DNA from: a virus
Taxonomy: Duplodnaviria > Caudoviricetes
Length of the DNA stretch: 52,475 nucleotides
Virus record (IMG/VR): IMGVR_UViG_3300008266_000146
Span: 1 to 52,475 of that record
Strand: one strand, 5' to 3'
In this document: positions 712 through 38,691 of the stretch, piece after piece
How positions within the stretch are numbered: the first letter of the stretch is position 1
Layout: every line of letters begins with the position of its first letter
Translations under genes and position numbers: made by a program
The notes under the pieces: model-generated
Seen by the model: the letters and a program-made list of their open reading frames with translations, nothing else
The model's database searches: none
What the model was told of the DNA's origin: nothing

Positions 712-746
712 TCGGTTACTCCGCCGAGTAACTGCTATCGACACGC

Positions 747-774
747 TGCCCCCTGTCGCTAATGACGGGGGGCA
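747..774 (+). terminator. GC-rich hairpin after the first gene (possible terminator or processing site)
   Basis: TGCCCCCTGTC-gctaat-GACGGGGGGCA, an 11-bp stem with one G-U pair; no U-tract. Confidence 0.4.
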
Positions 775-989
775 TCAGTCGGGAGCACACCACCCCGAAC
801 CCCCCGCACCAACGGAGGCATCAATGCGACAATAACTGACACCACCACATCGCTGGACACCCTTGGGGCTGGGCGGAGCCTGAAAACTCCCCCGGCATCC
901 AGCCTTCACGAGAGGCGGTCACTCGCCTCCCATGAGCGCTGCACCCTGCGCTATCACGCAACGCGCTATCATCGCGCCGGAGCACCACC

Positions 990-1247
990 ATGACCAGCAC
1001 CAAGAAAACCTATTCCGTCCTGTTCTCCGCCCCGTGGCACGACACGCGCGCCTGTGCCTACTGGGTCGGCCTCGCTGCCGATCCGAAGGACGCGATCAAT
1101 CAGGCTGTCTTCTACGACCTTGCGGACCCTGAACCGTCCGAAAACACCTACGGCAAGCCCGATGGCGGCGCGCTGGACGAGGACGTGGCGCAGGTCACCA
1201 TCGTCTGGCTGTGCGAAGGCGAGCTGCCGGCGTTCATCCACACGTAA
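990..1247 (+). CDS. Hypothetical protein (acidic, 85 aa)
   Basis: GGAG RBS upstream; stop TAA lies inside the box at 1244. Confidence 0.75.
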   Translation: MTSTKKTYSVLFSAPWHDTRACAYWVGLAADPKDAINQAVFYDLADPEPSENTYGKPDGGALDEDVAQVTIVWLCEGELPAFIHT

Positions 1248-1263
1248 CTCGGGGGAGTAACCA

Positions 1264-1521
1264 ATGACCCGCATGCCGGGCAGTCGGGAATACGCCATTG
1301 CGTGCTGCGTTCACTGCGGGGTGGCGTGGCCGACGACGCACTTCGTCGCTTACGGTCAGCAGATGCCATACTCATGCAGCGGCGGCGTTCGCTACCACGC
1401 CGTGGCACCGGCCTATATCGTCGACATCCTGCCGGGACATCCCACGCTGACGCGGGGTGTCAATGAGCGCTATCACGTGCTCGCCAAGCTCTTCCACGCC
1501 GCAAAGGAGACAACCTCATGA
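1264..1521 (+). CDS. CxxC/LAKLF family small protein, member A
   Basis: CCVHCG near the N-terminus, YIVD, C-terminal RYHVLAKLFH; RBS supplied by the box at 1244. Confidence 0.75.
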   Translation: MTRMPGSREYAIACCVHCGVAWPTTHFVAYGQQMPYSCSGGVRYHAVAPAYIVDILPGHPTLTRGVNERYHVLAKLFHAAKETTS

Positions 1522-1745
1522 CTAAGACCGCGTTCCTCGCCGCGCTCCGCCGGCACCTGATCGACACCTACCAGTGGGCTGCCGACGCGGCGAAACTGGA
1601 CCGCTTCATGGCCAGCGTCGAGGCCACGATCCGTGGGGACGTGAAGACGTGGAACCCCGACGGGGAGGCGTCGACGGCCGCGTGGCGCGAGATCGGCGGC
1701 ACCGGCAAGGTCGCTCTTCGCCGCCTGCGCGAGTTGGCCGAGTAA
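1518..1745 (+). CDS. Hypothetical protein (75 aa)
   Basis: AGGAG RBS, ATGA overlap with the upstream gene, stop inside the box at 1742. Confidence 0.75.
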   Translation: MTKTAFLAALRRHLIDTYQWAADAAKLDRFMASVEATIRGDVKTWNPDGEASTAAWREIGGTGKVALRRLRELAE

Positions 1746-1760
1746 CTTGGGGGAGTAACC

Positions 1761-2024
1761 ATGCGCTACGCACTGGTGTGCTGCCCCGAATGCGGCGATC
1801 TGTGGACAAAAGCGCGCCGTGACCCGCTGTTCACGCTCGGCGAGCGCACGCCTACAGTATGCAACGGCGAGTTCAAAGGTCGGTTCGGACACGAGCCGAC
1901 ACGTGTGGTCGTCGTCGACCTTGAGCCGGACTACATCGTCGACAGCCGTCACAAGCTGAGCAACCGAGAGAGCGACCGCTACCACACGCTCGCCAAGATA
2001 TTCGCCTCTAACTCCAAGGAGTAA
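1761..2024 (+). CDS. CxxC/LAKLF family small protein, member B
   Basis: CCPECG, YIVD, RYHTLAKIF; bounded by boxes at 1742 and 2008. Confidence 0.8.
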   Translation: MRYALVCCPECGDLWTKARRDPLFTLGERTPTVCNGEFKGRFGHEPTRVVVVDLEPDYIVDSRHKLSNRESDRYHTLAKIFASNSKE

Positions 2025-2029
2025 CCACC

Positions 2030-2332
2030 ATGGCCAAGATGACTGTCGCCGACGTTGCCACCGCGCTCCGCGATGCCGACGTGTCCACCCTGACCCCGGC
2101 GACCGCGCCGGACTGGCTCAAGATGATCGACTTCCTCCGCCAGCAGACGCTCGCTGCCATCGACGAGGTGGCCCTGCGCGCTGACGCGCTGGACGCACGT
2201 GAGAAGGCGGTCGCGGAGGCTGAAGCTGTGCTCGCCACCCGCAAGGCTGCCGTCGAGCGCATCATGTCCCTGCCGGGTGCGCACCCCGCCACCCCGCCGT
2301 CCACCAAGCGCTCCATGTGGAGCCTCCGGTAA
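2030..2332 (+). CDS. Hypothetical protein with a predicted coiled coil
   Basis: Bounded by boxes at 2008 and 2329; Ala/Glu/Arg-rich helical segment. Confidence 0.75.
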   Translation: MAKMTVADVATALRDADVSTLTPATAPDWLKMIDFLRQQTLAAIDEVALRADALDAREKAVAEAEAVLATRKAAVERIMSLPGAHPATPPSTKRSMWSLR

Positions 2333-2348
2333 CTCAGGAGAGTAACCC

Positions 2349-2609
2349 ATGTCCATCTACTGCCCTGCCCAAGGCCCGCCGCGCCTCATCCGGCTCATCC
2401 CCGCGCTCTTCCCCGACGGCTCGCTCGCCGTGCTGGACGAGAGGCGCAACTTCCTCATGGTGTCCGCCCCGCTGTTCGAGGGACTGACGCCCATCCAGCA
2501 GGAGCGGTGCCGGCGCACGACGCGCGCTATCACCATGCCGCATGACGTCGAACACCACCAAGACCCCATCCCCTTTGGCCGCAGCGCCGGCCGTAACTCG
2601 CAGGAGTAA
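2349..2609 (+). CDS. Hypothetical protein (86 aa)
   Basis: Bounded by boxes at 2329 and 2593; RBS from the upstream box. Confidence 0.7.
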   Translation: MSIYCPAQGPPRLIRLIPALFPDGSLAVLDERRNFLMVSAPLFEGLTPIQQERCRRTTRAITMPHDVEHHQDPIPFGRSAGRNSQE

Positions 2610-2615
2610 CACCCT

Positions 2616-3716
2616 ATGCCCACCCTTCAGCAGCTTGCCGGCATCATGCCGAACATCCTCGACACCGGCATCAGCGTCGAGTTGATCTCGTCGCCCGGCA
2701 TCGGCAAGTCCGACTTCGTCGAGCAGCTGGTCGCGTCGCGCACCGAGACCACCGGCATCAAGTGGGGCATGTCGCAGGCCTTCCTCGCGACCTACACCCC
2801 GCCGGACCTCATCGGCTACCAGTTCAAGGGTGAGCGCATGTGGCGCTCGCCGCACACTGGCGAGATGGAGCCGGTCGCCGTGACCGATCCGTCCATGCCG
2901 CTGTGGATGATTTCGTCCGAGGGCCGCCCGCTCTACGAGTACGAGCGCGGCATCCTGTTCCTCGACGAGTTCGGGCAGGGTGAGGCTGACGTCAAGCGCG
3001 CGGCGGCGCAATTGCTGCTCAAGCGCGAGATTGGTCCGTGGCGTCTGCCGCCCGGCTGGTCGGTCATGGCCGCGTCCAACCGCGCCAACGACCGCAGCGG
3101 CGTGACCAAGTCGTTCGACTTCGTCATCAACCGGCGCGTCGAGTACCACATCACCCCCGACCTGCTGTCGTGGGACGCATGGGCAATCTCGCGGGGTATC
3201 GACCCGCTGTTCGTGGCCTTCGCCCACCAGCACCCCGAGATTGTCTTCTCCGGCTCCGTGCCGAAGCAGCAGGGTCCGTGGTGCACGCCGCGCTCGCTCG
3301 TCATGGCGCATGACCTGCTCGTGGCGATCTCCGGCGGTGCCGGCCAGCCCATCCGCATGGATGATCTGGGTGCGGAGACCATGCGCGGCACCATTGGCGA
3401 CGCGGCCACGGCGCAGCTCAAGTCGTTCATCGACGTGTCCATGCAGCTGCCCTCGCTGGACGACATCGTCGACGATCCGACGAAGTGCGCGTTGCCGACG
3501 CGTGCGGACGGTCAGATGCTCGTCGTGTTCCAGCTGGCGCACGTTGCGCACAAGGACATCATGCGGCCCGTCGGCACCTACATCAACCGGCTCGGCGCGT
3601 CGTTCGAGACCATGTTCATCAAGCGCCTCATCGGTCGGTCGCCGACGTTCGCCATGGACCCGGTCATCGACAAGATGGTCACCCGCAACGCCCACCTCAT
3701 CCACGCGGTGGCGTGA
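2616..3716 (+). CDS. MoxR-like AAA+ ATPase
   Basis: Walker A SPGIGKS, Walker B ILFLDE, sensor-1 AASN, INRR and TPRS motifs; a vWA partner lies nearby. Confidence 0.85.
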   Translation: MPTLQQLAGIMPNILDTGISVELISSPGIGKSDFVEQLVASRTETTGIKWGMSQAFLATYTPPDLIGYQFKGERMWRSPHTGEMEPVAVTDPSMPLWMISSEGRPLYEYERGILFLDEFGQGEADVKRAAAQLLLKREIGPWRLPPGWSVMAASNRANDRSGVTKSFDFVINRRVEYHITPDLLSWDAWAISRGIDPLFVAFAHQHPEIVFSGSVPKQQGPWCTPRSLVMAHDLLVAISGGAGQPIRMDDLGAETMRGTIGDAATAQLKSFIDVSMQLPSLDDIVDDPTKCALPTRADGQMLVVFQLAHVAHKDIMRPVGTYINRLGASFETMFIKRLIGRSPTFAMDPVIDKMVTRNAHLIHAVA

Positions 3717-3777
3717 CGGTTACTCGCCGGAGTAACGGGGCGCGAATGCCCCACCGCCCCAACAGGAGCACGCACCA
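3717..3777 (+). repeat. 61-bp direct repeat, copy 1 (box + hairpin + RBS leader)
   Basis: Matches 6052-6112 with one mismatch. Confidence 0.9.
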
Positions 3778-3978
3778 ATGCGCACCACCTACACCATCAC
3801 CCTGCATGCCGATCTGGCTGACGACGCCGAGAAGCAGGCAGCGCTCGACCAGTTCATCCGCGACCGCGCCATCGAGACCATTGCTCTCGTCAAGCTGCTG
3901 GGCCTGTCCCGTCCGCCGGCCATCACGGCGACGCGCCACCGCTATGGCGACGGCACGGTGGACATCGACGTCACATGA
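3778..3978 (+). CDS. Hypothetical protein (66 aa)
   Basis: AGGAG RBS 9 nt upstream of the ATG; ATGA overlap with the next gene. Confidence 0.7.
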   Translation: MRTTYTITLHADLADDAEKQAALDQFIRDRAIETIALVKLLGLSRPPAITATRHRYGDGTVDIDVT

Positions 3979-4229
3979 CGCGCGCTATCATCGCCGACCG
4001 GCACTGGGCCTGCTGCCCCGACTGCAACAAGATGTGGCAGTCCAAACATCTGCGCGGCTACGCTCTTGGTTGCCGCACCCGGTTTGTGTGTATTTGCAGC
4101 CCACAGCCGCTCGCCCCCGGCGCCCCCCGCCTGATCGCTGTCGGTGACCTGCCGGAGCACAAGCCCGCCAAATACGTCTACGCCATGGCGAAGCTATTCG
4201 CCAGTAACTTGAAGGAGTTACCGAAATGA
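3975..4229 (+). CDS. CxxC/LAKLF family small protein, member C
   Basis: CCPDCNKMW at the N-terminus; YAMAKLF at the C-terminus. Confidence 0.75.
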   Translation: MTRAIIADRHWACCPDCNKMWQSKHLRGYALGCRTRFVCICSPQPLAPGAPRLIAVGDLPEHKPAKYVYAMAKLFASNLKELPK

Positions 4230-5608
4230 AGCTGCTCGAATTGACCCCCGCGCAGAAGGTGGAGTGGGAAGCCACCCGCACAGCGCTCATGTGGAGCGCC
4301 CCGGCGTTCACCCACCTGCTGTTCACCATCCTCGACTACCGGGCGCGCGACAACTACGCCAACGCGTTCTGGACGGACGAGGTGGAGATCGCCGCGACCG
4401 ACGGCTGGCGTCTGCTTCTCAACCCCACGACGTTCTTGGCGATCCCGCTCAAGGACCGCGTGTTCATCGTGGCGCACGAGATCATGCACTGCATCTGGGC
4501 GCACCCCGCCACCATGAAGCACTGGCAGCAGCGTGGCTATGTGGTCGGCGCAAAGGGCGATCACATCCCCTACCACCACGAAGTGCTCAACATCGCTGCC
4601 GACCTCATCATCAACGACCTGCTGATCGACAGCAAGATCGGCACATTCCCGGCCATCGGCGGCCTGCACGACAAGAACCTCGCCACCGCTGTGGACGCCC
4701 TCAACGAGGTGTACGAGCGCGTCTACAACAAGACGCCCAAGCAGCCGCAGGGCGGCAACGGGCAGGGGCAGGGGCAGGGGCAGGGGCAGGGGCAGGGGCA
4801 GGGGCAGCCCGGTCAGGGTAACTCCCCGAGTAACGGTCAGGGTGCCGCCGGCCAGATGCCGTCCCATGGCGGCAAGAAGGCGTTCGACACCATGATGGAC
4901 CCGGACGGCCATCCCGAGGATAAGCCCGCCGACGCCCATGCCAATGGCACGGCGCAGGGTGACGGTCGGTGGCGTCAGGCCATCGCCGAGGCTGCGGCTC
5001 TGGGCAAGGCGCAGGGGCAGCTGCCGGCCGGCATCGCCCGTGTCTTCGCCGAGCTGACGGAGCCCAAGGTCGACTGGTCCGGTGCCATCCGTGGCGCGGT
5101 CGCCCGCCGTGTCGGCTCGTCGGACAGCTCATGGCGTCGCCCGGACCGCCGCATGATCGTGCGCGACATCTACTCGCCCGGTCGCAGCGGTCACGGTGCC
5201 GGCACCATCGCGCTCGTCGGCGACACGTCCGGGTCCATGACCGACACCGAGATCGGCGTCATCCTGCGCGAGTTGCGGGGCATCTTGGAAGACCTCAACC
5301 CGCAGCGTGTCATCGTCATCTGGTGCGACGCCAAGGTCCATGCGGTCGAGGACGTCTACGACGCCAGCGACATCCCCTCCCTGCGGCCCAAGGGTGGCGG
5401 CGGCACCGACTTCCGTCCGCCGTTCCATTGGCTCGACGACGAGAGCATCACGCCGGACGGTATGATCTACGTGACCGACGGCTATGGCACGTTCCCGTCG
5501 AGCGCGCCCGACTACCCTGTGATCTGGGCCGACATCACCGGCCCCGGTCGCGTCGCCTACCCGTGGGGGGACGTCATTAACATCCCCCGCGACAGCCTCG
5601 CCGAGTAA
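4226..5608 (+). CDS. Metallopeptidase-like (HExxH) + vWA domain protein (DUF2201-like)
   Basis: AHEIMH zincin motif; MIDAS DTSGS, GGGTDF and TDGY; Gly/Gln linker; typical partner of MoxR-type AAA+ ATPases. Confidence 0.85.
   Translation: MKLLELTPAQKVEWEATRTALMWSAPAFTHLLFTILDYRARDNYANAFWTDEVEIAATDGWRLLLNPTTFLAIPLKDRVFIVAHEIMHCIWAHPATMKHWQQRGYVVGAKGDHIPYHHEVLNIAADLIINDLLIDSKIGTFPAIGGLHDKNLATAVDALNEVYERVYNKTPKQPQGGNGQGQGQGQGQGQGQGQPGQGNSPSNGQGAAGQMPSHGGKKAFDTMMDPDGHPEDKPADAHANGTAQGDGRWRQAIAEAAALGKAQGQLPAGIARVFAELTEPKVDWSGAIRGAVARRVGSSDSSWRRPDRRMIVRDIYSPGRSGHGAGTIALVGDTSGSMTDTEIGVILRELRGILEDLNPQRVIVIWCDAKVHAVEDVYDASDIPSLRPKGGGGTDFRPPFHWLDDESITPDGMIYVTDGYGTFPSSAPDYPVIWADITGPGRVAYPWGDVINIPRDSLAE
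4760..4807 (+). repeat. Perfect tandem repeat (GGGCAG)x8 encoding (GQ)8
   Basis: Eight identical hexamers in the linker of the vWA protein. Confidence 0.95.
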
Positions 5609-5673
5609 CTTCGCCGAGTAACCGGGGGCGCGCTATCACGGCGCGCTCCCACCACCCCAACAGGAGAACACCC

Positions 5674-6048
5674 ATGAAATCCTACCGCCGCAATGATCGT
5701 GAAGAGACGCGCGAAATCGAGCCCATTACGCTGGACTTGCCCGCCGCGCTCATCCACAAGCCGCTGCACGTCGTCACCATGGGCGCAAAGGCCACCGCGA
5801 TTGTCTACGAGACGGCCAACCGCGTCTGGAGCAGCGACCGTACCAACTATTTCGACGCTCCCGTGTTTCGTGTGGTGCTCACCGGGTTCAGCGACGCCGC
5901 GCGCAGCCGGCTGGCGTACTACAATGGGCACCGCGACGACGCCCAATGCTTCACCACTCTGCTCGACGTCGAGCTGTTCATTCGCGCGGCTGCCGTGGCG
6001 TGCGCCCCGGTCAAGAAGCGCGTCACGGTCGTCGAGGAAGACGTCTGA
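5674..6048 (+). CDS. Hypothetical protein (124 aa)
   Basis: AGGAG RBS; lies between boxes at 5605 and 6054. Confidence 0.7.
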   Translation: MKSYRRNDREETREIEPITLDLPAALIHKPLHVVTMGAKATAIVYETANRVWSSDRTNYFDAPVFRVVLTGFSDAARSRLAYYNGHRDDAQCFTTLLDVELFIRAAAVACAPVKKRVTVVEEDV

Positions 6049-6051
6049 CGG

Positions 6052-6112
6052 CGGTTACTCGCCGGAGTAACGGGGCGCGAATGCCCCACCACCCCAACAG
6101 GAGCACGCACCA
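6052..6112 (+). repeat. 61-bp direct repeat, copy 2
   Basis: Matches 3717-3777 with one mismatch. Confidence 0.9.
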
Positions 6113-6166
6113 GTGCCCATCAAGCCGCCGCTCGCCAAGCTCTTCCACGCTAACTCGCAGGAGTAA
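6113..6166 (+). CDS. 17-aa micro-ORF MPIKPPLAKLFHANSQE
   Basis: GTG sits at the same offset from AGGAG as the ATG at 3778 in the other repeat copy; encodes the LAKLF tail of the CxxC family; stop inside the box at 6150. Too short for the supplied ORF track. Confidence 0.55.
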   Translation: MPIKPPLAKLFHANSQE

Positions 6167-6171
6167 CCACC

Positions 6172-6402
6172 ATGGCTAGCCACTACTACGCTGAATGCGC
6201 CAGCGGCAAATCGCGCGCCAGCCGCACCGGCACTCTGAAGACCGGCATCCGCGCCGTCGTCGCGTCGTGGCAGGGGGCGTGCCACACCACCCTCTACGAC
6301 AAGGACGGCGTCACTTATGTCCGCGTGCATCTGGCGTTGTGGGGTGGCAAGGGCACGTCCAAGCTGATCTACGACGGCCCCGTCGGGGAGTACGCGCCGT
6401 GA
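6172..6402 (+). CDS. Hypothetical protein (76 aa)
   Basis: RBS from the box at 6150; ends GEYAP. Confidence 0.7.
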   Translation: MASHYYAECASGKSRASRTGTLKTGIRAVVASWQGACHTTLYDKDGVTYVRVHLALWGGKGTSKLIYDGPVGEYAP

Positions 6403-6671
6403 GCAATCCCCGCACCCACAGGCCGGGGCCGGGCTTTGCCGGCGACGCCGTCGAGCATGTGCGGCTCTACCATGGCGTCATGGACCTGCACAGCAAGAAC
6501 ATCCTGCGCACCATATTGCGCGGTGCGCTCGACAGCCACGCCCATATCGTCAAGGGACTGGCCGGCACCGCGACGCAGGCTTGGTTCGAGGACACGTTCA
6601 AGAACGACGTCGCGGCAGTCAACGATGCGATCTCGCTGCTGGACAGTAGCTCAGGGGAGTACGCGCCGTGA
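6399..6671 (+). CDS. Hypothetical protein (MSNPRTH..., 90 aa)
   Basis: GTG start in a GTGA overlap with GGAG RBS; 3' part of ORF 6195..6671; flanked by 18-bp direct repeats; ends GEYAP. Confidence 0.65.
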   Translation: MSNPRTHRPGPGFAGDAVEHVRLYHGVMDLHSKNILRTILRGALDSHAHIVKGLAGTATQAWFEDTFKNDVAAVNDAISLLDSSSGEYAP

Positions 6672-6991
6672 AGTATTTCGTCGCTGGCTGCCCGACATGC
6701 GGGCGGGTGTGGCAGTCCACCCATGCGCCGCTGCAACAGCTTAGCTCTCATTATGGGCTCTGTCGCGGCGGCACTGGCAGCCAAAAATACCCTATGACCG
6801 GCGACGAGATTGGACCTATCGCCGAGCATGTCACCTCGATGTATATCGTGTACATGCACGACCAGCCGCTAGCCGTCCGCAGCCATCAGTATAGGGAGGT
6901 AAACGGGCCGATCACCACCCTTTTACCCGCTGACGAACATGCTAGACTGTGGGCGCTCGCGAAGCTCTTCCACAGTAACTCCACGGAGTAA
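6668..6991 (+). CDS. CxxC/LAKLF family small protein, member E
   Basis: GCPTCGRVW, YIVY, LWALAKLFH; stop inside the box at 6975. Confidence 0.75.
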   Translation: MKYFVAGCPTCGRVWQSTHAPLQQLSSHYGLCRGGTGSQKYPMTGDEIGPIAEHVTSMYIVYMHDQPLAVRSHQYREVNGPITTLLPADEHARLWALAKLFHSNSTE

Positions 6992-6996
6992 CCTCC

Positions 6997-7575
6997 ATGA
7001 CCGCTGTCCAGATCGTAGGGTTGTGTGGCGTAGCGCGTGCCGGCAAGACCTCGACGGCCAACTTCATGAAGGTGGACAAGGGCTTCACCAACATCAGGTT
7101 CACCGACAGCATGGCCAAGATATGTCTCGCTGCCGGCCTGACACCCGACCACGTCGACGGACGCCTCAAGGACACCCCGGAGCCGTTACTCGGGGGAGCA
7201 ACACCCCGGCAGTTCATGGTTGGCATCGGGCGCACGCTGCGCGCGTTCAACCCCGAGTTCTTCCCCGAACACTGGCGCAGGCAGGTGCGCGCTATCACGC
7301 CGACGCTGCACCCCATGCTCCGCAAGATCGTCGCTGACGACGTCCGCACGCCCGCTGAAGCCGCTGCGATCAAGGCCGAGGACGGCGTCCTCATCCGCAT
7401 CATCCCCACCTATCCGGCCTATGCCAACGCCACCAGAGGCATCGACTATGACCCTGCGACTGAAGACCAGCAATTCGACGTCGACCACACCGTCCGCAAC
7501 GCCGGAAGCGCGTTCGAGCTTGCCGGACAAGTCTACGCCATCCTCGCCGCGACATGGCCGCGTCCTCTCGGGTGA
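6997..7575 (+). CDS. Deoxynucleoside monophosphate kinase
   Basis: N-terminal P-loop IVGLCGVARAGKTS; TPRQFM and DDVR..EA.AI...G.LIRI motifs typical of phage dNMP kinases. Confidence 0.8.
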   Translation: MTAVQIVGLCGVARAGKTSTANFMKVDKGFTNIRFTDSMAKICLAAGLTPDHVDGRLKDTPEPLLGGATPRQFMVGIGRTLRAFNPEFFPEHWRRQVRAITPTLHPMLRKIVADDVRTPAEAAAIKAEDGVLIRIIPTYPAYANATRGIDYDPATEDQQFDVDHTVRNAGSAFELAGQVYAILAATWPRPLG

Positions 7576-7576
7576 C

Positions 7577-7900
7577 GTGCTCGCCATCGGGTACTGCCCG
7601 GCGTGCGACAAAGCCGTGTACCGCACGTTCAAGGCCAAGACCATTCACAAGCGCCAGTGGGGCATCGGCAGCGCTGCCTATCAGTGCGTCGGCGATGTTG
7701 TGCAGTCGCATGGGTTTCCTTACAGGGTGCGTACATGGGCGCATCCCGGCGAGTTCGTGACGTTGATCCAGATCAAACCCGTCGCCAGACAGCTGGGTCG
7801 GCGCTCCGCGCCTACGCTCCCTGTAAACCCTAACATCCTGTCTGACAAAGCGCGTGCGCTCATGGCGATCCTCGCGTCCAGCCGTCACTCGGTGGAGTAA
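7577..7900 (+). CDS. CxxC family small protein, divergent member F
   Basis: GTG just after the kinase stop; YCPACD; C-terminal amphipathic ARALMAILA instead of LAKLF; stop inside the box at 7884. Confidence 0.6.
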   Translation: MLAIGYCPACDKAVYRTFKAKTIHKRQWGIGSAAYQCVGDVVQSHGFPYRVRTWAHPGEFVTLIQIKPVARQLGRRSAPTLPVNPNILSDKARALMAILASSRHSVE

Positions 7901-7903
7901 CCC

Positions 7904-8365
7904 ATGCACGGGTTCCAGATCGAAGAGTTCCGTCGCTCCATGCTGGAAGCCACGTGGCTTCTCGTCATCATGCTGACCACGGCGTGCAGCATGCTCATCG
8001 TCGGCATGCACCACGTGTCTGAGCCATCCTCGACGGTCCTCATCGTTGCGTCTGGCGTTGTCACCGTCACCGCCATGTTCGCCATGCGTGCGGCGGCGAA
8101 CGACGCTTGGCGGACGTACTGCTGGGACAACTACGACAGTGCGCTCGTCAGCCTGTACGCAGTGCTCGCTGAGGATGACGGCTCGCAGACCTACTTCGTC
8201 GCGCAGGAGCGGCACTCCGTCAAGAGCATCATGCACGCCTACAGCCCGGAGGACATCACGAAAGGCGTGAGATGGGCGCTCGCGCAGCGCAACCTCACCC
8301 ATGGCTCGACGCTCGTGCGCTACTGCACCGACGACGAAGTCGCATTCTTGGAGAACGACAGATGA
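7904..8365 (+). CDS. Hypothetical membrane protein (two hydrophobic segments)
   Basis: WLLVIMLTTACSMLIVGM and VLIVASGVVTVTAMFAM; RBS from the box at 7884. Confidence 0.7.
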   Translation: MHGFQIEEFRRSMLEATWLLVIMLTTACSMLIVGMHHVSEPSSTVLIVASGVVTVTAMFAMRAAANDAWRTYCWDNYDSALVSLYAVLAEDDGSQTYFVAQERHSVKSIMHAYSPEDITKGVRWALAQRNLTHGSTLVRYCTDDEVAFLENDR

Positions 8366-8586
8366 CCAGACCCCGCACCTACGACAGCCGCGAAGCATTC
8401 ATGTCCGCCCTCTCGGAGGCCATCGTTGCCGACGGCAGGACGCACGTCCAGCTCGCGCTCGCCACCAGCGTCTCGCATACAACGATCAGCCGCATTGTCA
8501 GCGGCGACACCCGCTGGCCGCGCTACACCACCATCTTTCCGCTCATCCAGACGCTGGGCCTCAAACTGTCGCTGGAACGTCGATGA
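8362..8586 (+). CDS. XRE/Cro-like helix-turn-helix protein
   Basis: THVQLALATSVSHTTISRIVSG.T..PR..TI..L..TLG matches the XRE HTH pattern; ATGA overlap and GGAG RBS. Confidence 0.8.
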   Translation: MTRPRTYDSREAFMSALSEAIVADGRTHVQLALATSVSHTTISRIVSGDTRWPRYTTIFPLIQTLGLKLSLERR

Positions 8587-8606
8587 CGGTTACTCAGGGA
8601 GTTACC

Positions 8607-8873
8607 ATGCGAGAGCCGTTCCGCGACTATCCCGAGGATATGCAAGAGCTTGAAAAAGTCCTTGCGGATGACGTCAAGGTGTTGTCGGTGCACCTCGCCC
8701 TGCTGCTGACTGGCGACGCTCCGGGCGTCAAGTCACCCCGCATCCCTATCGTGGCGATCATCAACGCTGCGCTTGAAGTCTACGGTAACCAGCCGTGGCT
8801 GGTCAGCGACATCAAGCGCCACTGCGAAGCGCTGGAAATACAAGCACGCATATACGCCAACAGATCAATATAG
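8607..8873 (+). CDS. Hypothetical protein (MREPFRDY...)
   Basis: ATG directly after the box at 8589, which supplies GGGAG. Confidence 0.65.
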   Translation: MREPFRDYPEDMQELEKVLADDVKVLSVHLALLLTGDAPGVKSPRIPIVAIINAALEVYGNQPWLVSDIKRHCEALEIQARIYANRSI

Positions 8874-8882
8874 GAGCACCCA

Positions 8883-9533
8883 ATGTCCCGTGAAACCAGA
8901 CGGTACCGCGCCTGCACCAACGCCCAAGGCGAAGCGTACCTCTCCACCGTCCGCAGCGCACTTCAGCGGTACGTCAACGTGCCGGCCACGATCCCTGTCG
9001 ACGTTGTCGCGCACGCCCTCATCAAGCCGGACGACGTCGAGATATGCCGCGCTGCCAGCCGCTTCTACGGCTTTCGGACAGCCCGGCGCGTGATCTCGGT
9101 CGACGTGCCGTTTCTGACCGCCAGCAACGAGCTGGTGTCGCAGCTGTTCAAGTTCGAGCTGCGCACCGGCTCGCTGCGCCTGCCCGAATACGTCCACAAC
9201 GAGTTCGTCGTCGACCGCACCAACCTCTACTACGGCAACTTCCGCGAGTGCGTCGACAATCAGGTAGCGGCGCTGCTCAACGTCAAGAGCATCTATGCGG
9301 AGGTCCGGCACGTGCTGGCCGTATGGCCGGCTAACAATGCGCGCGCCGTCCTGCCGGGGTTCAAGGAGCTGGTCCCCGGTACGGTCACGGAGTACGTCCC
9401 GTGCAACCGCCTGCTTTTGCAGTGGTTCGACGTCTACGCTGCTGCCAAGATGATGCCGGAGGTCCAGTATTATGACCCGGACGAGAGCCGACCTGACGCA
9501 GTGATGATTATCTGCGAGAGCGTTACAGAATAG
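8883..9533 (+). CDS. Hypothetical protein (216 aa)
   Basis: AGGAG RBS; phage-like codon usage. Confidence 0.7.
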   Translation: MSRETRRYRACTNAQGEAYLSTVRSALQRYVNVPATIPVDVVAHALIKPDDVEICRAASRFYGFRTARRVISVDVPFLTASNELVSQLFKFELRTGSLRLPEYVHNEFVVDRTNLYYGNFRECVDNQVAALLNVKSIYAEVRHVLAVWPANNARAVLPGFKELVPGTVTEYVPCNRLLLQWFDVYAAAKMMPEVQYYDPDESRPDAVMIICESVTE

Positions 9534-9584
9534 GTGCGCTATCATCCGGGCGTCGGGCGTGCGTTACTCGGGCAAGTAACTGTC

Positions 9585-9613
9585 TTGACTATGTCTTGTC
9601 TATATGTTAGCAG
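9585..9613 (+). promoter_or_regulatory. Possible sigma70-type promoter for the DNA polymerase
   Basis: TTGACT in an AT-rich intergenic stretch 4 nt downstream of the box at 9563-9580; the -10 at 17-nt spacing (TAGCAG) is weak. Confidence 0.35.
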
Positions 9614-9658
9614 TATTGCACCCCGCCACCCCGATGCGACTACAACACAGGCCGCGCC

Positions 9659-11536
9659 ATGAAGCGAATTTTTCTCGATTTCGAGAGCTACTACGACGAC
9701 CTGTACTCGCTTCGCAAGATGACGCCGGCAGAGTACCTGCTGGATGCCCGGTTCGAGATGATCGGCTGCGCGGTCGCTGTCGGCGATGGGCCGTCCGACT
9801 TCATGGACGCTGCGCACTTCGACTGGTTTCTGCAACAGCACGACCCGCTCGACTGCATGGTGATCTCCCACAACGCGCTGTTCGACGCCTGTCTGCTGAC
9901 GTGGCACTACAACTGGATGCCGCGCCTGTTCGTCGACACGCTGGCCATGTCCCGTGCGCTGCTGCAACACAAGCTGCGCTCGCTATCGCTGGACAGTGTC
10001 GCCCGGCACTTGGGGCTCGGCGTCAAGGGCACGCAGCTGATCCAGATGAAGGGCATGACCACCAACATGATCCGCTCGCGCGGGCTGTGGCCGGGCATGG
10101 CAGAGTATGCGCGCAACGACAACGACCTGTGCCGGGGCATCTTCAAGACGCTGCTGAAGGACTTCCCGGCGAAGGAGATCGTGCTGAATGACATGGTGAT
10201 CCGCTGCGCGGCGGTGCCCATGCTGATGTTCAACCGCGAAATCCTGCACGAGCATCTTGCCGACGTACTGCTGAAGAAGCAACAGCTGCTGGCGCAGTGC
10301 GGCGTCACTGACGTCGCCGACCTGATGTCCAACGACAAGTTCGCCGAGGTGCTGTCGTCGCTGGGCGTGGAGCCACCCCGCAAGGTGTCGCAGCGCACCG
10401 GCAAGGAGACGTGGGCGTTCTCCAAGACCGACGTCGCGTTCATGGAGCTGGAAGAGCACGACGACCCCATGGTGCAGGCTGCTGTCGCCGCTCGCATGGG
10501 GTTCAAGTCGACCATCGAGCAGACCCGCACCGAGCGGTTCATCGCCATCTCCCAGCTTACTTGGCCGAGTAACCAAGGCCACGACATCCCGTGGGCGCCG
10601 ATCCCACTGCGCTTCTCGGGCGCGCACACGCATCGCCTGTCGGGCGACTGGAAGCTGAACATGCAGAACCTTGGGCGCGGCAGCCGCCTCAGGTACGCGC
10701 TTGAAGCTCCGCCCGGCTACAAGGTCATGACGGTGGACGCCTCGCAGATCGAGGCGCGCGTCAATGCCACCCTGTGGGGGCAGGAGGACCTGCGGTTGAT
10801 GTTCGAGCGGGGCGAGGACGTCTACTCGTCGTTCGCGGGCAACGTCTTCGGCTACCCGGTGAACAAGAAGACGCACCCCAAGGAGCGGTTCATCGGCAAG
10901 ACGTCGGTGCTCGGGCTGGGGTTCGGCGTCGGGCACGTCAAGTTCTTCAACACGGTCCGGCTGAAGTCGAAGCAGGACTTGGGCGAAGAGATGATCCTGC
11001 CGGAGGGCGAGGCGCAGCGCATCGTCAACCTGTTCCGGGGCACCTATAACCGCATCTCGGCGGGGTGGGACATCCTCAACGGGCTGATCCCCGCCATGGC
11101 CGCCGGCACCGCCACCCAGACAATCGGCCCGCTCAAGTTCGGGGCGAAGGCGATCCGCCTGCCGTCCGGGCTCGACCTCAAGTACCACAACCTGCGTTAC
11201 GAGACGCACGAGGTGTTCGGCAGTGGCTGGGTCTACGACTACGCCGGCAAGCCCAAGCGCCTCTATGGGGCTGCGCTGGACGAGAATGTCGTGCAGGCCA
11301 TCGCCCGCTGCGTCACCATGGACGCCGCTGTCCGCATGCGCCCGTGGATGGACGCCAACGGGTGTTTCTTCGTGATGCAGGTGCACGACGAGCTGGTCTA
11401 CGCCGTGCCAGACCACCTTGTCGACGACGCCGGGCAACTCATGCTGGACGAGATGCGCCGCCGCCCGACATACATGCCCATGCTGCCGCTCGACGCCGAG
11501 GTTGGTGTTGGGTACAGCTACGGCGACGCCAAGTAA
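9659..11536 (+). CDS. Family A DNA polymerase with 3'-5' exonuclease
   Basis: Exo motifs LDFES and HNALFD; motif A DASQIEAR, motif B RFIGKTSVLGLGFG, motif C QVHDEL. Confidence 0.92.
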   Translation: MKRIFLDFESYYDDLYSLRKMTPAEYLLDARFEMIGCAVAVGDGPSDFMDAAHFDWFLQQHDPLDCMVISHNALFDACLLTWHYNWMPRLFVDTLAMSRALLQHKLRSLSLDSVARHLGLGVKGTQLIQMKGMTTNMIRSRGLWPGMAEYARNDNDLCRGIFKTLLKDFPAKEIVLNDMVIRCAAVPMLMFNREILHEHLADVLLKKQQLLAQCGVTDVADLMSNDKFAEVLSSLGVEPPRKVSQRTGKETWAFSKTDVAFMELEEHDDPMVQAAVAARMGFKSTIEQTRTERFIAISQLTWPSNQGHDIPWAPIPLRFSGAHTHRLSGDWKLNMQNLGRGSRLRYALEAPPGYKVMTVDASQIEARVNATLWGQEDLRLMFERGEDVYSSFAGNVFGYPVNKKTHPKERFIGKTSVLGLGFGVGHVKFFNTVRLKSKQDLGEEMILPEGEAQRIVNLFRGTYNRISAGWDILNGLIPAMAAGTATQTIGPLKFGAKAIRLPSGLDLKYHNLRYETHEVFGSGWVYDYAGKPKRLYGAALDENVVQAIARCVTMDAAVRMRPWMDANGCFFVMQVHDELVYAVPDHLVDDAGQLMLDEMRRRPTYMPMLPLDAEVGVGYSYGDAK

Positions 11537-11549
11537 CTCGGGGGAGTTA

Positions 11550-11942
11550 ATGTCAGATAAAATCTCGCGTCAGGCGGTATGCCCCCACTGTAGCTTTACT
11601 TCGTATCAACACGACTCCTTGCCGTATGAAAAAGACGGCCTTTCTTCGTGGGACTGGGCCTGTCGCGCAGTCGGCAGACGCAGGTACAGCGAGCATCTAT
11701 GCAAGGATGGGCCTAACGCGGGGCAGTATAGTCACAGCTATATAGTTCACGTCTACGACCGCGAAGACGGTGGGGAAAAGCTGCCGTTGAAACAGGCCCA
11801 AGCCCGCGCCAAGCTGTTCGATGTCAACTATGTCGAGCCGCCCGAATATATTAACACTTACACGTCTACCGGCAGGCTGGTCGAAAAGTTCTACGCCAAC
11901 ATCGTTCGCGCCGCCATCGAAGCCGGTAACTCGGAGAAGTAA
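11550..11942 (+). CDS. CxxC/LAKLF family protein, member G (AT-richer than its neighbours)
   Basis: VCPHCS, HSYIVH, ARAKLFD; starts and stops inside boxes at 11533 and 11926. Confidence 0.7.
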   Translation: MSDKISRQAVCPHCSFTSYQHDSLPYEKDGLSSWDWACRAVGRRRYSEHLCKDGPNAGQYSHSYIVHVYDREDGGEKLPLKQAQARAKLFDVNYVEPPEYINTYTSTGRLVEKFYANIVRAAIEAGNSEK

Positions 11943-11961
11943 CATAGGAATAGAAACCCTA

Positions 11962-11990
11962 TTGACAGGGGGTTCTACCTTGTGTATACT
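11962..11990 (+). promoter_or_regulatory. Near-consensus sigma70 promoter
   Basis: TTGACA-N17-TATACT; an imperfect inverted repeat (TAGAAACCCT/AGGGGGTTCTA) straddles the -35. Confidence 0.75.
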
Positions 11991-12013
11991 TTGTCTGATC
12001 GTTGGAGCACCCC

Positions 12014-12319
12014 ATGCAACATCATCTGACCCGCGACCATTATTGGGCCGCACTAAAGCTGCCGCCCGTCATGCTCGACACCCTGATGGCCCTCATCGAG
12101 AACGAGATCATCACGGTCGACTACCTGACGAACGTGACCCTGCACGGGCACTACGCCATCCACCGCCTGCGGCGCGTCCTCGCTGACGAGTGTCCGGCGA
12201 CCGGCATCACCAGCGCTCGCGCGGTGGGGTACTGGATGACGCCCGAGCAGAAGGAAGAGCTGGCGGCCTACGTCGCTGCCAAGCTGGCTGCCAATCGCGC
12301 GCCGTTACTCGCCGAGTAA
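12014..12319 (+). CDS. Winged-helix DNA-binding protein (OmpR/PhoB C-terminal-like)
   Basis: HYAIHRLRRVL...ITSARAVGYWM resembles the recognition helix and wing (HI.RLR.KL...I.TVRG.GY) of the OmpR/PhoB DNA-binding domain; GGAG RBS. Confidence 0.65.
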   Translation: MQHHLTRDHYWAALKLPPVMLDTLMALIENEIITVDYLTNVTLHGHYAIHRLRRVLADECPATGITSARAVGYWMTPEQKEELAAYVAAKLAANRAPLLAE

Positions 12320-12346
12320 CACCACCCCCGCACCCCGGAGCGATCC

Positions 12347-12733
12347 ATGGGCCAGACGCCTGCGCCTCCCGCCAATCTGTACGCCATGGCTACCAATGCT
12401 TCGCACAGGAACGCGCTATCACCCGCGTCCCAGTCCATCCGGCAGACGTCGCTGGGCTCGAACACCTACAACGGTATCGGGCTCGGCGTCGTCAAGACGG
12501 TGCCGTGTATCGCCGACAGCGCTTGGCGCACTGAAGCTATCAACACGCGTTGTCACAGTTTTGACCACAGCGGGCTTGCCATCTTTACTATCTGGCTGGA
12601 AGGCTGGCAGCACATCCACGTCGCTATCTGTCGCCGCGCGGGTGACGGGCTTGTCGTGGTCGAAGACCCGGTCGCGTCGTTCCCATCCGACAACCTCATC
12701 GCAAAGATCGCTCTCATGGCAGCAGTGAAATGA
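12347..12733 (+). CDS. Hypothetical protein ending FPSDNLIAKIALM
   Basis: GGAG RBS; ATGA overlap with the next gene; C-terminus resembles that of 13296..13634. Confidence 0.6.
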   Translation: MGQTPAPPANLYAMATNASHRNALSPASQSIRQTSLGSNTYNGIGLGVVKTVPCIADSAWRTEAINTRCHSFDHSGLAIFTIWLEGWQHIHVAICRRAGDGLVVVEDPVASFPSDNLIAKIALMAAVK

Positions 12734-13294
12734 CCGGACCCGCCACAACCCAATACCGCAAGGTCGAAAAGCCGTTCTCTTGGTCCTACTCTCGGATCAA
12801 GAATTTCGAGACGTGCCCCAAGCGCTACTATGAGGTGGACGTCGCCAAGAATGTGCAGGAGGAAGACAGCGACCAGCTCGCCTTCGGCAACAAGCTGCAC
12901 TCGGCGTTCGCGGCCTATCTGTCCAAGGGCACCCCGTTGCCGCCGGACCTGATCACCTATCAGGAGGACGTTGACCGCGTTGCCGGCATGAACGGCACGA
13001 TGCTCGTCGAGCAGAAGCTGGCGATCACCAAGGACTTCGGGCCGTGCGATTACTTCGCGCGTAACGCTTGGTTCCGGGCGCAGGGGGACGTGCTGCGCAT
13101 CGCCGGCAGGGTGGCCTATTGCGGCGACTGGAAGACCGGCAAGGTGAAGGAGGACAGCGTCCAGCTGGCACTCGTCGCCGCGTGTGTCTTCGCCCACCAC
13201 CCCGCCGTGCTGGCCGTGAAGACCGAGTTCATCTGGATGGCTCTGCCGGCGCTACTGCCCGGTCCGCTCGTGCCCGCACTACGGAGGAGAGTGA
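12730..13294 (+). pseudogene. Cas4/AddB-like PD-(D/E)xK exonuclease with a frame break near 13240
   Basis: WSYS...FETCP, GNKLH, VEQKL, D..., DWKTGK and QL motifs in the frame of 12730; the expected C-terminal three-Cys cluster LCRRYCPVRSCPHYGGE* (13241-13294) is in the +1 frame. Confidence 0.7.
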
Positions 13295-13295
13295 T

Positions 13296-13634
13296 ATGTC
13301 GACGTACATGGACGCACTGCGGCGCAGCAACACTGTGCCGGAGCGGTTCTCGCTTAGAGACGTCATGCGCCGCACCGGCGACGAGGTGCTGCTCCGGTCG
13401 CTCTACAACGGGATGCCCCTGCCGGTCGGTGTCCTGCTCCGCGAGATTGTGGACAGCCCTATGGATCAGTCGCTCATATATACTGTTGTGACAGGCCCAC
13501 GATTCAGCGTCGTCCAACTGAAGGCGGGCCTTCAGGAAGTCACCCACGGAAGTCCTAACTTCTGGCCGTTACCGGACAGCGTGCTGGCGAAGATGAAGCT
13601 GCTATCTGCCGCTGCTGGTAACTCGGGGGAGTAA
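13296..13634 (+). CDS. Hypothetical protein (MSTYMDAL..., 112 aa)
   Basis: Strong GGAGGAG RBS at 13283; stop inside the box at 13618. Confidence 0.7.
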   Translation: MSTYMDALRRSNTVPERFSLRDVMRRTGDEVLLRSLYNGMPLPVGVLLREIVDSPMDQSLIYTVVTGPRFSVVQLKAGLQEVTHGSPNFWPLPDSVLAKMKLLSAAAGNSGE

Positions 13635-13636
13635 CA

Positions 13637-14035
13637 ATGACCCCCGAGGGCAAAGTCAAAGCGGCAGTGAAGGCTGTTCTTGCCCGGCACACTGGGCTAT
13701 ACCATTTCATGCCCGTGCCATACGGCATCGGCGAGAGCAGTCTGGACTTCATCATCTGCTTTCGTGGCGTGTTTATCGCCGTCGAGACGAAGGTGCCGGG
13801 GAAGTCGATGACCCCCCGCCAGAACATACAGGCCGGCAACATCGCCGCCGCAGGCGGAGCTGTATTCGAGATCGCATCGCATTCAGACGTGGAGCGGTTC
13901 GCGGCGTGGCTCGACGAGCTGGCTGCAACCCCGGAGATAGAGAATGTCATTAGCCGAAGTGATGGTGAGCGCGACATACCGAAGCATCGTCGTGCCCCAC
14001 CGCGCCGACGTGGCGAACCTATTCCCATCGAGTAA
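13637..14035 (+). CDS. VRR-NUC domain nuclease / Holliday junction resolvase-like
   Basis: MTPEGKVK...G..LDF...G.FIAVETK.PGK.MTPRQ pattern. Confidence 0.85.
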   Translation: MTPEGKVKAAVKAVLARHTGLYHFMPVPYGIGESSLDFIICFRGVFIAVETKVPGKSMTPRQNIQAGNIAAAGGAVFEIASHSDVERFAAWLDELAATPEIENVISRSDGERDIPKHRRAPPRRRGEPIPIE

Positions 14036-15512: not shown

Positions 15513-15540
15513 CCTACTATCGCACCCACGGAGAAGCACC

Positions 15541-15924: not shown

Positions 15925-15964
15925 ATTACTCCACCGAGTAACCCCTGAGAGAAGAGGACATACT

Positions 15965-20348: not shown

Positions 20349-20368
20349 TTACTCGGGGGAGTAACTTC

Positions 20369-21422: not shown

Positions 21423-21437
21423 GGTTACTTCCCCGAG

Positions 21438-38688: not shown

Positions 38689-38691
38689 AGG

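Follow-up and report, generated by a model that had tools for sequence, protein, structure and literature searches.

A family-wide palindromic box in a podophage-like genome: candidate operator-like sites inside genes and at gene junctions

What is served by a short palindrome that recurs dozens of times in one phage genome, in some places directly before a start codon and in others inside long genes? This question is raised by the 52,475-base window analyzed here, which is the full, linear virus record IMGVR_UViG_3300008266_000146 (65% GC, estimated to be 85% complete) and carries a podophage-like gene set according to PHROGs and Pfam scans of its proteins. The element, referred to here as the box, is a 17-18-bp palindrome of the form GTTACTC-N3/4-GAGTAAC with arms of 7 bp, and is present in 41 copies. 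A first-pass annotation of this DNA had described the box as a combined stop and ribosome-binding site (RBS) that separates one-gene cassettes, and had proposed that recombination between boxes exchanges whole genes as in an integron. We found that the window box appears to represent a cis-element (core TWACY-N5/6-RGTWA) that is spread through whole genomes and across the phage family, and we tentatively read its copies as operator-like sites on DNA.

The box in the window and across the phage family

The box is strongly overrepresented in every form of the pattern that we searched. Allowing up to three mismatches, GTAACT-N4-GG-AGTAAC gave 65 strand-matches against 0.87 expected, and the symmetric pattern GTWACT-N6-AGTWAC, with at most one mismatch, gave 34 sites against 0.01 expected, a number that none of 100 shuffles matched. 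Exact copies of the symmetric pattern number 23, and the backwards pattern has none. When the core TWACY-Nx-RGTWA was scanned with spacers from N1 to N12, 33 sites were found at N6, 6 at N5 and 1 at all other spacers together, with 2 sites in the reversed-arm controls; the total of 41 boxes consists of the N6 and N5 sites plus two degenerate copies. Single GTWAC pentamers are likewise in excess (101 against 36 expected), and 56 of them are paired at a distance of 12-13 nucleotides (nt). With hand-curated genes, the 41 boxes fall into 15 junction boxes, defined by a start codon directly after the box, 10 boxes after a stop or in a gap, and 16 intragenic boxes. As 95.3% of the genome is coding, 25 of the 41 boxes thus lie at gene ends or within the 4.7% that is non-coding.

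The boxes inside genes bear on whether the motif itself is under selection. Of 12 intragenic window boxes tested, 11 are in frame 0, where GTT ACT xxx xxx AGT AAC encodes V-T-x-x-S-N. Across six complete genomes, 47 of 59 intragenic boxes are in frame 0, 9 in the other open frame and 3 in the frame that gives a stop, these last probably being gene-calling errors. In 16 large window genes (11,156 codons) the peptide VTxxSN is present in 6 copies where composition predicts 0.11, and all six are spelled GTT ACT .. AGT AAC, with codons whose family shares are 9.0% (GTT), 8.1% (ACT) and 4.7% (AGT). Alignments with homologues showed that intragenic boxes substitute loop residues in place and are not inserted, the exception being an apparent 6-residue insertion in the polymerase of Rhizobium phage RHph_TM27A. 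The use of one frame, the rare codons and the substituted loop residues together indicate selection on the nucleotide motif, with proteins bent to fit it. These comparisons, made at the level of sequence, show that the element is kept by selection on nucleotides at many places in the genome, long genes included.

The box is also a property of the phage family. Relatives were taken from IMG/VR and have 38-54% protein identity in anchor proteins; the nearest named ones are Rhizobium phages RHph_TM27A, TM27B, TM29 and TM3_14A (polymerase 47.6% identical), and Pseudomonas phage KPP25 is a more distant named relative. In the ~60-kb genomes of 11 relatives, exact GTWAC-N8-GTWAC sites number 24, 11, 10, 7, 6, 30, 6, 6, 16 and 13 in G001 to G010, respectively, and 25 in the cultured RHph_TM27A, with reversed-pattern controls giving 0-2. 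The TWACY core is enriched at N5, N6 or both in 18 of 19 relatives or loci, and KPP25 has 0 copies. (KPP25 shows an excess of CCWGG-containing 7-mers, for example one with 45 copies against 19 expected.) Box versions are genome-specific: most genomes have GTTACC..GGTAAC, G006 has GTTACT..RGTAAC, G010 has the window's form, and divergent versions are found in G014 (TTACCG-N3-CGGTAA, 18 exact copies) and G015 (TAACTG-N4-CAGTTA). We considered G012, G014 and G011 as box-less relatives and rejected this, as the short-spacer form is present in 23, 23 and 9 copies, respectively; the ACCGG repeats of G011 were rejected as boxes, being embedded in long, regularly spaced GGT-containing repeats.

Individual box positions are shared among relatives. 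At column 331 of the DNA polymerase alignment, a box is present in the window (LTWPSN) and in loci L017, L018, L019, L022 and L023 (LTWPGN), and locus L028 has its own clade's variant there (LTASSY). Further shared columns were found in the ATPase, SNF2, g15965, g43495, g45523 and g50362 genes, two of which match the standard box with the G015 variant. RHph_TM27A also shares several junction positions, with boxes behind the first early gene, behind the metallopeptidase/VWA gene and where the giant gene meets its small downstream neighbor. From these alignments and counts, it is shown that the box sequence changes in step across all sites of one genome. Conserved positions together with concerted motif change are what would be expected of cis-sites read by a co-evolving trans-factor.

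We also observed overlapping boxes, in which three to four GTWAC pentamers follow one another in a 13-nt phase (L039, which belongs to G006, at ~12807-12837 and 13779-13809; L018 at 474-504 and 1031-1074). Such phased runs indicate that the element can be arrayed and not solely paired.

Outside this family, the exact motif with 14 specified bases was found at no fewer than 121 loci (at least 121) in bacterial genomes; among the matches listed, these are scattered single sites in unrelated bacteria, with no sign of a motif-rich host lineage. A literature search of limited scope, covering main texts, found no published description of the box motif and no paper naming these Rhizobium phages.

The window is organized into a rightward early arm (1-21143) and a leftward late arm (21147-50310), with the terminase gene beyond the latter. 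The early arm holds small genes and those for a MoxR-like ATPase, a DUF2201 metallopeptidase/VWA protein, DNA polymerase I, a RecB-like exonuclease, a VRR-NUC-like nuclease, an SNF2 helicase and a primase-helicase of 1002 amino acids (aa). The late arm encodes a 2383-aa protein, internal virion proteins, an endolysin, tail proteins, a capsid protein and the portal. No tRNA genes were found in the window. The 41 boxes are placed in this genome as follows, with position, strand (a dot marks a box given without strand) and description.

715..732,. : perfect palindrome after the TGA of gene 1-711, followed by a GC-rich hairpin; RNA hairpin -10.6 kcal/mol, z -3.6
1244..1261,. : junction box; left-half TAA ends 990-1247; GGAG; ATG 1264
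1742..1759,. : junction box; left-half TAA ends 1518-1745; ATG 1761
2008..2025,. : junction box (CTAACT...); right-half TAA ends 1761-2024, tail SNSKE; ATG 2030
2329..2346,. : junction box; left-half TAA ends 2030-2332; ATG 2349
2593..2610,. : junction box; right-half TAA ends 2349-2609, tail RNSQE; ATG 2616
3719..3736,. : perfect palindrome after the TGA of ATPase gene 2616-3716; starts the 71-nt repeat 3717-3787
4204..4221,. : junction box (GTAACT...AGTTAC); gene 3975-4229 reads through; ATG 4226
4818..4834,. : short-spacer box within gene 4226-5608 (DUF2201 metallopeptidase/VWA-like)
5605..5622,. : box whose left-half TAA ends 4226-5608, then a GC hairpin; next ATG 5674; RHph_TM27A has a box at the same place, behind the homologous metallopeptidase/VWA gene
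6054..6071,. : perfect palindrome after the TGA of 5674-6048; starts the second 71-nt copy, 6052-6122
6150..6167,. : junction box; right-half TAA ends 18-codon remnant 6113-6169, tail ANSQE; ATG 6172
6975..6992,. : junction box; right-half TAA ends 6668-6991, tail SNSTE; ATG 6997
7185..7202,. : degenerate box within 6997-7575, the sole one not in frame 0 among the 12 intragenic boxes tested
7884..7901,. : junction box (GTCACT...); right-half TAA ends 7577-7900, tail RHSVE; ATG 7904
8589..8605,. : short-spacer junction box between 8362-8586 (HTH_3 protein) and ATG 8607
9563..9580,. : box with perfect arms in the 125-nt gap 5' of the DNA polymerase gene
10556..10573,. : in-frame box LTWPSN within the DNA polymerase gene; column common to five relatives plus the L028 variant
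11533..11550,. : junction box; left-half TAA ends the polymerase gene; ATG 11550 shares the box's last base (A)
11926..11943,. : box whose right-half TAA ends 11550-11942, tail GNSEK; sigma-70-like match 11962-11990 downstream
12304..12320,. : short-spacer box; its TAA ends gene 12014-12319
13618..13635,. : junction box; right-half TAA ends open reading frame (ORF) 13296-13634, tail GNSGE; ATG 13637
14284..14300,. : short-spacer box within the SNF2 helicase gene; same alignment position boxed in RHph_TM27A and G014
15150..15167,. : box with 1 mismatch within the SNF2 helicase gene; column shared with G001 and G006 boxes
15925..15942,. : box directly 3' of the TGA of 15541-15924; next ATG 15965
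16982..16999,. : in-frame box VTPASN within gene 15965-17272
18519..18536,. : in-frame box VTLASN within primase-helicase gene 17340-20348
20348..20365,. : junction box overlapping the TGA of the primase-helicase gene; ATG 20369
21424..21441,. : junction box; on the - strand the 2383-aa gene ends here and the HNH-like gene starts at 21422; same in RHph_TM27A
22434..22450,. : short-spacer box within the 2383-aa gene
23874..23891,. : in-frame box VTSLSN within the 2383-aa gene
25713..25730,. : in-frame box VTPESN within the 2383-aa gene
27438..27455,. : in-frame box VTRRSN within the 2383-aa gene
30046..30063,. : in-frame box VTPGSN within gene 28597-31998
33406..33422,. : short-spacer box in the stretch 33081-33536, either intergenic or within ORF 33052-33540 (-)
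36134..36151,. : in-frame box VTPESN within gene 36005-36412
38691..38708,. : junction box; on the - strand its TAA ends 38692-39261, tail GNSGE; GTG start 38688
41984..42001,. : in-frame box FTLASN, 1 mismatch, within gene 41789-42214
43720..43737,. : in-frame box VTREGY within gene 43495-44085; column shared with a G001 box
47782..47799,. : box at the end of - strand gene 47796-47978; next start 47760, 22 nt off
50809..50826,. : in-frame box ITLPSN within gene 50362-50859; G015 variant box in the same column

Two observations concern neighboring genes. The RecB-like exonuclease gene (12730-13634) is in two frames, 12730-13491 and 13296-13634, and its homologues align only with the first ~170 residues of ORF 12730-13491. 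Contigs of three other samples (X7, X8 and X9) have 131 extra letters at 13238/13239; this insert would join both frames, so the window is here an apparent deletion variant or contains an assembly error. Gene 15965-17272, which encodes a 435-aa conserved replication-module protein, has at 16770-17135 a long Ala/Pro/Lys-rich low-complexity tract and then an acidic tail, which we presume to be reminiscent of acidic-tailed single-strand-binding proteins.

Boxes at gene junctions

The stop-plus-RBS description was accurate for the junctions on which it had been based. At all 15, the start codon lies 0-5 nt after the box, as claimed. In 12 of 14 junction boxes, and in 5 of 21 other boxes, positions 11-14 are GGAG, the proposed Shine-Dalgarno sequence; the box ahead of the start at 8607 is of the form with one base less in the spacer. 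The claim that a TAA in either half ends the upstream gene is correct for the left half at 5 of the 15 boxes (1244, 1742, 2329, 11533 and 21424) and for the right half at 7 (2008, 2593, 6150, 6975, 7884, 13618 and 38691), but not for boxes 8589 and 20348, which are abutted by TGA, nor for 4204, through which gene 3975-4229 runs. The eight box-encoded protein tails are all present; GNSGE, which accounts for two of them, is found at 13617 and at 38709 (- strand). The same peptide appears once more at 2328, outside any coding frame, and five of the eight tails come from one paralogous family of small Cys-rich proteins, so that the tails are not independent. Gene 11550-11942 is indeed AT-richer than the polymerase gene (54.5% against 64.0% GC).

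As a general account of the box, however, the junction description covers 15 of 41 copies, leaving 26 without a following start, 16 of these being intragenic. Stops also occur inside boxes that no start codon follows closely (left-half TAA at 5605 and 47782, right-half TAA at 11926), and boxes 715, 3719, 6054 and 15925 are closely preceded by TGA. Similarly, the proposal of one gene per inter-box interval holds for the eight genes cited in its favor, but one of these, 6113-6169, is only an 18-codon remnant, and other intervals contain two to three genes. Of the early-arm (+) junctions, 17 of the 20 whose gap measures 4 nt or more carry a box, as do 3 of the 14 that overlap; in the late (-) arm, the corresponding numbers are 3 of 13 and 1 of 12.

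Junction boxes differ in sequence from intragenic ones. Read on the coding strand, they have GTAAC in place of GTTAC as the left arm and so lose one base pair of the palindrome. This 'AA' type (A at position 3, coding strand) makes up 21 of 25 junction boxes in the six genomes, and 50 of 59 intragenic boxes are perfect 'TA' palindromes. The GGAG within junction boxes implies that transcripts run through them and use them there as ribosome-binding sites; we dropped the box as a promoter of a virion RNA polymerase for this reason. A scan of 1-20000 for one promoter type, sigma-70, gave 5 sites against 3.1 expected, of which only 11962-11990, the best early-arm match, adjoins a box.

Such junctions resemble the Start-Associated Sequences (SAS/ESAS) of Cluster K mycobacteriophages, described as asymmetric 13-18-nt repeats in one orientation with a Shine-Dalgarno core, the 13-bp SAS lying 3-7 bp before starts (PMC3203893). 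The likeness includes the Shine-Dalgarno core near starts, the location in the non-structural half of the genome and an upstream stop that is sometimes within the repeat. In that account SAS are essentially never intragenic, whereas the box is palindromic, intragenic in 16 of 41 cases and present in the late arm too. The boxes are thus not SAS: 15 of 41 fit the position, the motif is symmetric, and 26 have no start after them.

Behind larger genes, the box is part of a longer arrangement. At 715, 3719, 5605 and 6054, it is followed by a distinct GC-rich hairpin, a C-rich stretch with AGGAG and a start codon, and the two stretches 3717-3787 and 6052-6122 are copies, 94% identical, of a 71-nt unit made up of box, GC hairpin, ribosome-binding site and start. 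Diverged copies of this unit were seen at 713-~830 and 5603-5676, the hairpin sequence varying among copies. The composite of box, hairpin, AGGAG and start looks like an intercistronic terminator, attenuator or processing module.

Candidate readers of the box

What might recognize such an element? The reading that we favor, and hold tentatively, is that the boxes are dispersed protein-binding sites on DNA that would also gate early expression. A sequence-specific factor would read the box, most likely a phage-encoded, co-evolving, dimeric DNA-binding protein, and the sites would form a scattered set of operators comparable to the 17-bp repeats of Cluster O mycobacteriophages, working in a stoperator manner. 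The box has an operator-like form, with conserved arms of 7 bp and a variable center; since conserved arms around a free center are the classic form of a dimer site, we counted this in favor of an operator on duplex DNA. The stop-plus-RBS appearance would be a secondary overlay: in the packed early arm, the gap between genes may be the cheapest place for an 18-bp site, and the arms and spacer at early gaps would have adapted to give TAA and GGAG, respectively. Occupancy of the sites would control whether transcription reads through, or whether ribosomes gain access, at nearly all early genes simultaneously, with early-gene shut-off as an example of the outcome. The fallback explanation in the first-pass annotation, a bound protein or a hairpin at each RBS, came close to the two leading readings but was too narrow, because the element is genome-wide and family-wide.

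Two known systems informed this operator reading, and the first of them is the nearest known counterpart of the box. Cluster O phages carry a 17-bp repeat with inverted arms of 7 bp and a 3-bp center in more than 30 copies (34 in Corndog); about one third are in coding regions, they are denser at one genome end, their function is unexplained, and the authors predict a dimeric DNA-binding protein as binder and find few if any repeats in indels (PMC4351075). The boxes resemble them in their inverted 7-bp arms, variable center, dozens of genome-wide copies, higher density in one arm and intragenic share of about one third; in that account and in our scans, neither group has an integrase or obvious lysogeny, and neither element is tied to indels. 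The boxes are therefore dispersed dyad repeats of the same kind, with unrelated motif sequences, a likeness that does not amount to common descent. The hosts and virion types differ, with siphoviruses of Mycobacterium there and a podophage family including Rhizobium phages here, and Cluster O repeats are described as not closely linked to translation starts, whereas 15 of 41 boxes lie 0-5 nt before one (PMC4351075). On the pages consulted, nothing is said of one-frame embedding, of conserved positions with clade-specific variants or of two spacer lengths in Cluster O.

The stoperators of Cluster A phages, as the Cluster O and Cluster K papers describe them, share with the boxes the occurrence of dozens of short sites in small intergenic gaps of early and late operons, and they supply a working model of how occupied sites could stop transcription across many genes together. 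A stoperator lacks symmetry, points along the direction of transcription and is recognized by the immunity repressor of a temperate phage; the boxes, by contrast, are symmetric and palindromic, many are intragenic, and no repressor or integrase was found.

Several observations weigh against the operator reading, the first of which is that no reader protein could be named. The only helix-turn-helix (HTH) protein found (8362-8586; Pfam HTH_3, E 2.8e-6) has no homologue in the relatives' loci at E <=1e-4, with one L028 match at E 0.001. P0001, the product of the first early gene (1-711 in the window; 289 aa at full length; 228 representatives at E <=0.001), was tried as a reader on its presence pattern, as tblastn suggested that it occurs only in box-bearing genomes, and was rejected when a profile search found it in all genomes, whatever their box type. 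It is predicted to be all-helical with a disordered Ala/Pro/Thr-rich N-terminus (mean predicted local distance difference test score, pLDDT, of 86), and its model had no Foldseek match at E <=0.001 and matched only helical hairpins (Z <=6.4) in a VIA-wide structure search; a PDB sequence profile search and NCBIfam returned nothing meaningful. A box is located at, or up to 26 nt after, the stop of the P0001 gene in the window, G001, G006 and G010. Also unfavorable is the finding of two spacer lengths between identical arms in one genome (33 N6 and 6 N5 in the window, 18 and 10 in L012), because a rigid dimer on duplex DNA is not expected to take both and a hairpin would. The 13-nt phased pentamer runs of G006 count on the same side, as does the position-3 A bias, which is the only strand bias of the sites, is confined to junctions and follows the direction of transcription.

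These points bear on a second explanation, that the box acts in transcripts as an RNA hairpin with a 6-7-bp stem and a 3-4-nt loop, read by a phage or host RNA-binding protein or nuclease in the control of early translation initiation or in mRNA processing or stability. We hold this to be less likely than the operator reading, yet a strong rival to it. Constant arms around 3- or 4-nt centers in one genome are natural for triloops and tetraloops, the phased runs of G006 suit a hairpin of RNA or of single-stranded DNA, and in the early arm boxes cluster at ribosome-binding sites. In RNA folding, perfect-palindrome boxes gave -7.9 to -12 kcal/mol, mostly well below shuffles, with z of -1.8 to -3.9 in 7 of 9; two of these seven (16982 and 30046) fold into a different helix, and the remaining two boxes have z of 0.06 and -1.4. 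Five junction boxes gave -4.9 to -7.3 kcal/mol, not better than shuffles, and these weak folds, along with the A.A mismatch in 21 of 25 junction boxes, would keep GGAG accessible. G006, on the other hand, keeps a perfect palindrome right before the start codon in 3 of 6 junction boxes. Departures from the motif do not favor RNA pairing either: on the coding strand in six genomes, G.U-type changes are not above A.C-type ones (96 against 99; intragenic 47 against 28), with position biases both ways, and the stem is conserved in sequence, beyond mere pairing. The 16 boxes in ORFs cost codons and residues at places where ribosomes would melt the stem, and a search of both strands of the entire window against Rfam 15 returned 0 matches that reached the gathering score.

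A third explanation invokes a hairpin of single-stranded DNA, or a cruciform, in replication, recombination or packaging, for example as a priming signal for the large primase-helicase or as the nick site of a small HNH-like protein; we judge it improbable. The palindrome would give the same stem on both strands and for either fork direction, both spacer lengths would be tolerated, and sites have been forced into long genes. The family encodes a primase-helicase, a RecB-like exonuclease, a VRR-NUC nuclease and an SNF2 helicase, together with the HNH-like candidate, a basic 91-aa protein (21147-21422, -) that lies directly after the 2383-aa gene and is kept in six relatives (43-64% identity). 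The Atlas clusters closest to it carry the name HNH endonuclease (score 0.97) and Pfam gives no match, so that HNH is a lead only. Spacing speaks partly for this explanation. By the coefficient of variation (CV) of the gaps between neighboring boxes, the late arm of the window (CV 0.54) and its early arm (CV 0.66) are as even as 2.6% and 2.5% of random placements, respectively; the value is 0.08% for the whole genome of G015 (37 sites, CV 0.59) and 4.3% for G009. Evenness was not significant in G001 (23%), G006 (80%), G010 (92%) and RHph_TM27A (23%), and a DNA hairpin does not explain the four-fold higher box density of the early arm.

A broader variant of these ideas would treat the box as a genome-wide 'punctuation' code, in which a stem-forming palindrome is written at intervals and co-evolves with its putative reader, and is not an ordinary operator. 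This we regard as rather unlikely; if true, it would be a new phage-wide signal, whether for self-marking of nucleic acid, hairpin priming or nicking, or a global switch of early ribosome-binding sites.

Gene exchange and the meaning of the box

The remaining question is whether boxes are recombination points at which whole genes are added, deleted or swapped, like the cassettes of integrons or the promoter/stem-loop (PeSL) cassettes of T4-type phages. Our results leave the integron-style proposal unsupported, and we consider such a role very improbable. Breakpoints between related genomes are not enriched at boxes, with 25 of 136 lying within 20 nt of one against 72 of 262 ordinary gene starts; these breakpoints come from four pairs of related loci, with L019 in two pairs, and their blastn ends are imprecise at 70-85% identity. 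Breakpoints are nearer to boxes than random positions, of which 4-9% lie near a box, and among those that fall at gene starts 15 of 60 are near one. Over the first 50 kb, RHph_TM27A and RHph_TM29 share 99.3-99.5% identity, apart from a single replaced segment, for which 1 of 4 ends abuts a box. The replacements that we inspected both begin and end at start codons, a box being present on one side or on neither, and some replaced genes in L016 and L017 start exactly behind a box and start codon, a point in favor of exchange at boxes.

The annotation's statement that no integrase is recognizable was confirmed in the window, which is ~85% complete: no integrase or other recombinase family was found with PHROGs (63 proteins) or Pfam (47 + 10 proteins), and none was present among the 9 RHph_TM27A proteins that match the ~6.6 kb missing from the window. 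No box-to-box joint was seen in contigs of four DNA runs of the same strain, contigs being prone to drop rare variants; the contig joints that were listed have sides of 21-26 letters with 85% likeness, are probably spurious, and none is box-to-box. The 16 boxes inside genes cannot be cassette boundaries, positions are conserved among distant relatives, and the authors of the Cluster O report tie few, if any, of their repeats to indels (PMC4351075).

Gene content offers some support for exchange. When 30 window proteins were searched, 9 were matched in a relative's locus, and 20 of the 21 unmatched were products of small early-arm genes, so that the small genes between boxes are orphans and the larger core genes conserved. 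Seven of the small early genes are paralogs (1264-1521, 1761-2024, 3975-4229, 6668-6991, 7577-7900, 11550-11942 and 20369-20635), with an N-terminal CPxCG-like motif, a C-terminal LAKLF motif and 23-47% identity. These Cys-rich paralogs have a third-position GC content (GC3) of 0.66-0.79, below that of their neighbors, have no homologue in related phages and are mostly flanked by boxes, as is the remnant 6113-6169, which retains only the last ~14 codons of the family behind a duplicated leader. The paralogs, the remnant and the 71-nt unit, repeated at 94% identity, indicate that modules have been duplicated and have decayed here.

T4-type PeSL cassettes are the known precedent for the gene-swapping idea and resemble the boxes in that a regulatory motif recurs beside small orphan genes within variable early regions (PMC2839356). 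For the boxes, only 11926 has a good match to the one promoter type scanned beside it, so the repeat unit does not include a promoter of that type, and breakpoints between relatives do not concentrate in the repeats. PeSLs are composites of an early promoter and a terminator-like stem-loop. Integron arrays consist of attC sites served by IntI, and attC sites are much longer folded sites than 17-18 bp. The likeness to them lies in the one gene per interval and the imperfect palindrome at each junction; the differences are that no tyrosine recombinase was found, adjacent or otherwise, and that the 17-18-bp boxes also occur inside genes and in both genome arms, not solely at the 3' ends of cassettes. 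We conclude that boxes mark gene boundaries, where exchanges end anyway, and that there is no evidence of their driving these exchanges.

The box thus joins the patterns of Cluster O repeats and SAS in one element and adds frame-locking, conserved positions with variants and two spacers. Dispersed palindromic phage repeats have been known since the Cluster O and Cluster K papers and are still unexplained, and the present case makes the question testable. Selection is demonstrable, as the motif has been forced into one frame with rare codons and altered residues, and positions are kept over 40-50% protein identity while the motif shifts in concert, which argues for a co-evolving reader. The cultured RHph_TM27A, with its 25 exact copies and with Rhizobium phaseoli N831 named in its record as laboratory host, makes pull-downs, transcript mapping and recoding feasible. 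If read as hairpins, the boxes may reveal a new replication or self-recognition signal; if they gate nearly all early genes together, they would constitute a compact global switch for phage development.

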